Below, in pieces: positions 44,609 to 45,374 of a stretch of DNA of 64,000 nt (its first letter is position 1; the number at the start of each line of letters is the position of its first letter). A program made the position numbers and the translations under genes. This stretch comes from Eledone cirrhosa (lineage: Eukaryota): the NCBI GenBank assembly GCA_964016885.1, contig OZ024764.1, positions 2,542,001 through 2,606,000 of the forward strand, given 5' to 3'. Under the pieces are notes generated by a model. The model was not told where the DNA came from. It was given only the letters and a program-made list of their open reading frames with translations, and ran no database searches.

Positions 44609-44649
<41 letters not shown>

Positions 44650-44682
44650 GATATTAACAAATGGAAACTATATTTATAAAAC

Positions 44683-44760
44683 CATATTTATTTCATTATA
44701 CATATTTCAAGGACACCAAGTCAAATTATGGTGTGCTTTCATCAGATAAAATATAATATA
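44683..44760 (-). ncRNA. Minimal type I hammerhead ribozyme (mirror arm of second copy)
   Basis: Near-exact reverse complement of 44893-44970 (TCATCAG at 44739-45). Confidence 0.7.
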
Positions 44761-44892
44761 GATCAGTTTTATAAATAAATATTGACATACCCTTAAAGAA
44801 TGCGACCATTACTGTTGGAAGCTCCCGGATAGTCTAACAGTAATGGTCGCATTCTTTTTAGTGTATGTCAATATTTATTTATAAAACTGATC

Positions 44893-44970
44893 TATATTAT
44901 ATTTTATCTGATGAAAGCACACCATAATTTGCTTTGGTGTCCTTGAAATATGTATAATGAATTAAATATG
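44893..44970 (+). ncRNA. Minimal type I hammerhead ribozyme, second copy
   Basis: CTGATGA at 44908-14; stem II AAG-c-ACACCA/TGGTGT-c-CTT; GAAATATGTATA. Two compensatory base-pair changes relative to the 42.4 kb copy. Confidence 0.75.
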
Positions 44971-45374
44971 GTTTTATAAATATAGTTTCCCTTTGTTAAT
45001 ATCGTATGTTTACTCCAAATACTTGTTGAGTGCTTTATATCAGTTATAAAAATATTAGCTTGTTGTATCCCAACAATTTAAATAGAACTTTTACATATAT
45101 ATATATATATATATGTACTTTGGGTGGGTCATGCTGCCAATAAAAACACACGCATCTGTTGGTTTTCATTTCAATTTATTATAAATTTCCGGTTGGTTGG
45201 TTGTTTCGATGGCATAGGACAGAACAAAGGAGACACACAAAATAAAAACCCAGTCACTGAGGAGGTCACAGAATGTGTGACAAAAGAGCTGACAATATAT
45301 AAACCATCTGGTTATTGAACCAACCACTCGGAAATTTATAATAAATTGAACTGTTTACCTTTTACATATATATA

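Follow-up and report, generated by a model that had tools for sequence, protein, structure and literature searches.

The window, that is, the whole 64-kb stretch of DNA analyzed here, was found to be repeat-rich animal DNA carrying a CENPJ/CPAP gene on the minus strand (46201-1123), which gave at least ten exon-like matches to Octopus proteins and whose introns are full of tandem repeats. Two CENPJ protein matches, from Octopus vulgaris and O. bimaculoides, were obtained among 74 candidates with 65-72% identity, and Pfam PF25779 scored above its cut-off at 45830-46243. On this basis, an octopod is the likely host. Both copies of the palindromic repeat described below are contained in one intron of this gene:

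41316..45907, minus strand: host intron of the CENPJ (CPAP/SAS-4) gene, between the exon-like matches 46201-45908 and 41315-41223 (tblastn)

Several other repeats were noticed in the window. At 24276-27230, beside 27232-28170, a 3-kb tandem array with 44-46-nt-based units starts a few bases from the end of a large CENPJ exon-like match, and the frame stops soon inside it. Two stretches, at 43749-44405 (plus strand) and 18124-18744 (minus strand), are related to each other and represent the 3' part of a LINE-like reverse transcriptase ORF, which we take to be RTE-like and which had no Pfam support; both carry the same internal 96-bp unit in two to three repeats. The frames at 38603-38857 and 36419-36859, the latter of which enters a 70-bp tandem array, are presumably similar to R2/R4- or CRE-type LINEs at their restriction-like endonuclease end; neither gave a Pfam match. 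In addition, a tRNA-like Rfam match just at the gathering score (29.4 bits; 34847-34904, minus strand) is probably the head of a tRNA-derived SINE.

Copy 2 (44646-45094), embedded in (TA)n, has two arms arranged head to head as a palindrome and a tail of 87 nt on one side; its parts are as follows:

44612..44647, no strand: left-flank (AT)n target microsatellite, following the end of a SINE-like repeat
44646..44833, minus strand: tail-less arm, starting 88 nt upstream of the hammerhead C3 and ending at AATATCGTAT
44828..44836, no strand: asymmetric central junction, with a 1-2-nt link to the tail-bearing arm
44836..45007, plus strand: tail-bearing arm, starting 72 nt upstream of C3
45008..45094, plus strand: tail of 87 nt, about 83% identical to that of copy 1
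45095..45114, no strand: right-flank (AT)n

The arms of copy 2 differ at seven places (six substitutions and one indel). The 16 nt at its center extend the tail-less arm upstream, in the sense of that arm, and this upstream sequence is also present in the public run X6. The SINE-like repeat end that precedes copy 2 recurs at 43471, where it leads into (AT)n and the element is absent. By eye, a loose inverted similarity was seen between 44866-44893, upstream of the hammerhead, and 45036-45060 in the tail, and these segments might pair in the source RNA. Beside copy 2, a small element at 45167-45353 with 36-nt inverted arms, 92% complementary and 115 nt apart, looks like a true MITE.

Copy 1 (41998-42542), the tail of which is on the opposite side to that of copy 2, was delimited as follows:

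41998..42080, minus strand: tail of 83 nt, abutting a short (AT)4 after a (GAT)n repeat tail
42081..42300, minus strand: tail-bearing arm, with the hammerhead C3 at 42182
42301..42322, no strand: central spacer of 22 nt, with an 11-nt mini-palindrome at the right junction
42323..42542, plus strand: tail-less arm, with C3 at 42441, followed by (TA)27 up to 42591

Arms within a copy (100% identity over 220 nt in copy 1 and 96% in copy 2) are more alike than the two copies are (83-86%), just as the earlier note had claimed. Its further observation that the tail-less arms share an end point while the fold-back point differs was reproduced as well: both of these arms end at AATATCGTAT and pass into (TA)n, and the inner arm starts lie at -118 relative to the core C3 in both arms of copy 1 and at -88 and -72 in copy 2. 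All four outer ends border on (TA)n, with (TA)4+ runs making up 1.9% of the window; since every insertion end falls inside (TA)n, any target site duplication (TSD) would be masked there. A BLAST search revealed no further copies of the repeat within the 64-kb window.

The arms match the minimal type I hammerhead ribozyme motif, for which the following parts were assigned in copy 2:

44672..44776, minus strand: tail-less arm, domain of the minimal type I hammerhead, with C3 at 44745 and cleavage predicted after 44697
44877..44981, plus strand: hammerhead domain of the tail-bearing arm
44877-44907 with 44957-44981: long helix I of the tail-bearing arm, about 25 bp with two bulges
44908-44914 and 44945-44948: core CUGAUGA and GAAA, respectively
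44915-44944: helix II, 9 bp with a C.C mismatch
44948-44955: self-complementary helix III segment AUAUGUAU, predicted cut after A44956

CTGATGA and GAAATATGTATA, which were said to be kept by the diverged copy in opposite orientation, are indeed identical in all four arms. A hammerhead descriptor, drawn up post hoc, gave four matches in the window, namely the four arms, and none in 20000 element shuffles or 100 block-shuffled windows. The U3-A8 core variant did not occur within the window. Rfam returned no hammerhead either for the whole window at the gathering threshold, where the sole match was tRNA-like, or for 44830-45100 at E<=10, where one chance snoRNA match appeared. As for energetics, the active fold was calculated at -15 to -16 kcal/mol per molecule in the monomer and -21 to -22 kcal/mol in the dimer; it lies 5-8 kcal/mol above the monomer minimum and is the minimum-energy fold in neither form. 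Folding of the whole unit was no stabler than that of shuffles (z 0.1 and -0.2), which lends no support to a retrozyme-like rod. The ATG within the hammerhead core opens a frame of just 11 codons.

To place the two copies within their family, four of the 15 listed public runs were aligned to the tail-bearing arm and tail of copy 2 at 80% likeness, the small-share runs X7-X12 being left aside. Part of the stretch was present in 12 listed runs from 8 studies. Run X1 contained it in 4934 contigs with a summed depth of about 0.9-2.8 million, versus 3-14 for the longest listed pieces, which points to an order of 10^4-10^5 arms in X1, the depth itself being no copy number. The repeat is also carried by runs X5 (65 contigs) and X6 (5 contigs), both labelled as other organisms. 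Loose ends entering (TA)n were found after 45007 (27 contigs) and after 44997 (5110 reads), and the arm end is therefore fixed family-wide. On the upstream side, the X1 depth fell to 10% at 44854-44862 and 1% at 44845-44853, compared with 84% at an equal distance from the other reference edge; this fall, which divergence could also cause, suggests that most arms start just upstream of helix I. Viewed over 44836-44880, the drop immediately upstream of helix I is about 100-fold. In the tail-bearing arm, rare letters at 44962 and 44991 show residual X1 depths of 3358 and 3357, and could mark a small subfamily having both.

The centers of the palindromes look locus-specific, subject to the caveat that hairpin centers may be under-sequenced: the bin over the copy 2 junction had a depth of 50 in X1 versus about 10^6 over the arm, and four opposite-strand joints, with depths of 8-16, were found among the best 15 of 19 joints in that run. 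On account of this difference in depth, the independent formation of each palindrome at insertion, as put forward in the earlier note, is supported; later homogenization, the alternative given there, is less likely. The joints 44863-45024/26/28 and 44870-45058 were considered as evidence of fold-back and rejected, as the internal inverted similarity 44866-44893/45036-45060 may give false joints. Exact-pattern scans produced no matches in metagenome contigs, viral contigs or prokaryote genomes. The literature on octopus and cephalopod Penelope elements yielded no account of the family, which may nevertheless be catalogued in Repbase or Dfam, these lying outside the search. In the supplement of PMC8557442, six element-derived motifs were absent, although line breaks could conceal matches, and one looser variant motif gave a single match to an unrelated coding-like sequence.

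Constraint on the RNA structure was assessed by comparing copy 1 with the tail-less arm of copy 2 over the 105-nt domain, including 11 core positions, with the structure drawn from the same sequences. Thirteen inter-copy differences were found in this domain, none of them in the core: seven are unpaired, two are G.U/A-U changes, and the remaining four positions make up two double compensations, so that no pair is broken by any of the 13. Both double compensations, which had been pointed out in the earlier note, are located in stem II: G-C is replaced by A-U at 44916/44943, U-A is replaced by C-G at 44920/44939, and the C.C mismatch is kept. When the differences were placed at random, all pairs and the core stayed intact in about 1e-4 of 200000 permutations, an optimistic figure in that the structure comes from the same sequences; when four substitutions were permuted into stem II, two double compensations arose in 0.4% of trials, again for a post hoc structure. 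Slid controls paired 38-53% of cells, versus 99%. A column-shuffle covariation test was not significant, 41 of 500 shuffles reaching the observed value, with only two events and two haplotype classes available.

Variation in the family was examined likewise. Among the best 40 of 74 rows of family variants, 25 fell inside the domain and none at core positions: 13 are unpaired, one makes helix III a perfect palindrome (that at 44952, which is common, at 26% in X1), seven keep the pairing by themselves, two need a compensating change, and two (44935 and 44944) break a pair unless the partner change is hidden. The marginal frequencies of partner changes were mismatched in X1 (0.2% vs 11.9%; 1.1% vs 13.0%), as well as in X5 and in the first-mate-plus reads of X13, and agreed only in the first-mate-minus reads of X13 (16.9 vs 15.2%; 43.9 vs 51.1%). 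This mismatch is likely due to diverged copies that were aligned solely from 44935-44945 onward. Among the best 24 of 367 loose-end rows, three diverged classes with copy-1-type letters were found, having U at 44920 together with A at 44939, and two of these three break the 44922-44937 pair of helix II.

These comparisons supported the proposal of the earlier note that the RNA structure would be under selection, in that 13 of 13 differences spare the core and keep pairing; the covariation itself amounts to two events only. Such selection most likely acts on the RNA of the source element, not on the inserted copies, because in a head-to-head transcript the two arms pair with each other (-258 and -367 kcal/mol for the two palindromes), which would bury the ribozyme. 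Since transcription entering from whichever side would reach the antisense arm before the sense arm and a 170-220-bp hairpin would form, the inserted palindrome would be inert as a ribozyme.

Taken as a whole, the palindromes are likely dead, stub-sized insertions that derive from the pLTR, the terminal repeat, of a Penelope-like element (PLE), containing a minimal hammerhead and seated in (TA)n. Six of the seven features examined match truncated PLE insertions, of which the two copies are likely members. The exception is the tail, which at 83 and 87 nt is about twice the usual 30-40 bp, a length that is a descriptive norm and not a strict one. Within the window, no RT or GIY-YIG sequence linked to the repeat was present near the copies. 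Six-frame translation of the four arms revealed no RT-EN ORF of their own; the longest frames, of 62 aa (sense) and 91 aa (antisense) in copy 1, gave no Pfam match, are broken in copy 2 and were rejected as coding.

In the mechanism that we propose, the insertion would be written into (TA)n by a PLE reverse transcriptase-endonuclease. A source element elsewhere in the genome, either autonomous or a short non-autonomous derivative, would be transcribed, and selection on its RNA would maintain the hammerhead core and helices; the hammerhead would cleave weakly and only as a dimer, via the self-complementary helix III. The enzyme would then cut (TA)n and start reverse transcription from one of two fixed RNA sites, the tail end or the AATATCG end, the latter offering 3-5 nt of TA microhomology on the RNA. 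Synthesis would break off prematurely, the stopping point varying but lying upstream of the hammerhead, and the inverted second arm would be produced within the same event.

A different origin of the arms would be dispersal as non-LTR retrozyme monomers from a small circular RNA, mobilized by PLE enzymes, with the palindromes as a by-product. Such monomers would agree with the type I hammerhead, a unit size of about 270-320 nt and the low GC content (PMC7229834); a pLTR origin has been reported for retrozymes (bioRxiv 10.64898/2026.07.22.740005), and a short source RNA is suggested by how steeply the X1 depth declines upstream of 44863. We nevertheless consider this origin improbable: the window has no head-to-tail tandem, the best 15 of 19 joints include none that links full units head to tail, the motif is of the minimal PLE type and not of the canonical retrozyme type, and the copies end about 50 and 138 nt past the predicted cut site instead of at it.

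Less credible still is a MITE or a foldback DNA transposon that has long terminal inverted repeats (TIRs) and targets (TA)n; it would have captured the hammerhead sequence and would move as a whole palindrome. The long inverted arms, the lack of coding sequence, the many copies and the TA flanks would all suit it, and TA-microsatellite-targeting Mutator-like elements do exist (PMC4486113). The inverted repeat, however, stops short of one terminus, leaving 83-87 extra nt in both copies; the centers are unlike between copies, with the low junction depth of copy 2 given above subject to the same reservation about hairpin centers; and substitutions track the RNA structure within each arm. The one-sided tail and unlike centers also bear out the contrast that the earlier note had drawn with the fixed TIRs of a MITE.

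Long AT-rich palindromes are unstable, and this, together with the complete identity of the copy 1 arms over 220 nt, could be counted in favor of single PLE stubs that became palindromes by later local inverted duplication or repair, or through a long-read assembly artefact; we regard this as most improbable, as two independent copies and thousands of reads end the second arm at AATATCGTAT and then (TA)n, the arms of copy 2 differ at seven places, and an inverted partner is regular in PLE insertions (PMC8557442).

Returning to PLE insertion, we weighed three ways in which the inverted arm could arise. The first, for which we would put the chance a little below even, is that two cDNAs were primed from both cut target ends and their truncated ends joined. 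The second, ranked only slightly lower, is snap-back of a single cDNA, the center being edited afterwards, and the third, later conversion alone, appears rather unlikely. Judged from the sequence, both outer ends would be 3'-side ends of the RNA joined to (TA)n, as expected of RT starts. Snap-back, the published reading, fits copy 1, which has the 11-nt junction palindrome; copy 2 hints at a poorer fit, because its central sequence is that of the tail-less arm, whereas a tail-end cDNA that folded back would leave the loop on the tail-bearing arm, and an extra central deletion would thus be needed. The letters of the tail-bearing arm in loop II (44931-44933) each retain about 19-23% of X1 depth (80000-98000), and the tail-less arm of copy 2 has the X1 majority letters at 44932-44933, these frequencies being marginals with reference bias at one locus that ectopic conversion would explain equally well. 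Both loop II states look like family variants, not private mutations, and the two halves of copy 2 may each go back to a different RNA template.

In its fullest form, which we advance tentatively and consider doubtful, the first of these ways would mean that an octopod harbors tens of thousands of short non-autonomous PLE passenger RNAs, each with a long helix I hammerhead and an 85-nt tail, inserted by twin priming: a dimeric RT-endonuclease would make one cDNA per cut target end from two RNA templates, and the truncated ends would be joined head to head. In the literature on Penelope and twin priming, judged by title, nothing about PLEs was found.

The copies put near-perfect hairpins of 170-220 bp into a host intron, and such intronic hairpins would be substrates for A-to-I editing. 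Automatic annotation would misfile palindromes of this kind as MITEs. The origin of the inverted copies and one-sided tails of PLEs is described in the literature as an unsettled question (PMC8557442; PMC11167929), and in a family as abundant as this one, with its polymorphic arms, snap-back can be distinguished from two-template priming by sequence alone; if the twin-priming reading is true, the formation of inverted pLTRs and tails in PLEs becomes testable by counting. The family merits attention for its long tail, its very high copy number and the hint of two templates, its anatomy as a class being already known for PLEs.

The architecture of a palindromic insertion is indeed already described for PLEs. 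In endonuclease-positive PLEs (Penelope/Poseidon, Neptune and Hydra), an adjacent inverted 5'-truncated copy placed head to head, a tail of 30-40 bp at one end and pLTR hammerheads have been reported (Craig et al. 2021, PMC8557442), with a (TA)n bias in Neptune, Hydra and Naiad, and head-to-head inverted pLTRs with junction palindromes were read as self-priming (Arkhipova et al. 2013, PMC3846280). The present copies share with them the inverted truncated partner, the one-sided tail, a hammerhead about 100 nt from the 3' end and the (TA)n target, and differ in the length of the tail (83-87 nt) and in having no ORF in either copy; the published insertions have no discernible TSD, and here any TSD would be hidden by the (TA)n. 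Identity with Hydra-1_oBim was considered and rejected, the hammerhead being unlike the motif listed for that element; it is also unlike the other listed Hydra motifs, whose helix III has 3-4 bp (PMC8557442).

Metazoan PLEs carry minimal type I hammerheads with a CUGANGA and GAAA core, a large helix II and a tiny palindromic helix III implying dimer cleavage, and these are dependent on dimers, low in activity, covarying within families and found in opposite-strand pairs 100-700 bp apart (Cervera and de la Pena 2014, PMC4209133). All of these structural traits recur here, including opposite-strand pairs a few hundred bp apart and, with two events, covariation within the family, whereas helix II closes with A-U instead of the conserved G10.1-C11.1 and contains a C.C mismatch, and helix I reaches about 25 bp with two bulges.

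As in the Anolis Poseidon element PAc, two fixed 3' end points delimit the tail and the target is AT-rich; the tail of PAc lies between two RT start sites, and its enzyme, a predicted dimer, cuts and extends both target strands, hammerhead cleavage being dispensable in vitro (Frangieh et al. 2024, PMC11167929). The ORF of PAc runs from the hammerhead through the tail, whereas the corresponding frame here closes after just 11 codons. Metazoan non-LTR retrozymes (PMC7229834; bioRxiv 10.64898/2026.07.22.740005) resemble the repeat in their non-coding, low-GC unit of about 300 nt, type I hammerhead and great abundance, and are unlike it in forming head-to-tail arrays, not inverted pairs with a tail, and in their canonical, not minimal, motif. 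MITEs, including TA-microsatellite-targeting Mutator-like elements, are likewise short, palindromic, non-coding and TA-flanked, in contrast to which the ends are asymmetric here, the center is variable and constraint is seen at the RNA level. PLEs are abundant in coleoids (PMC8967140), and Octopus vulgaris contains PLEs that have been active recently (PMC13282606).
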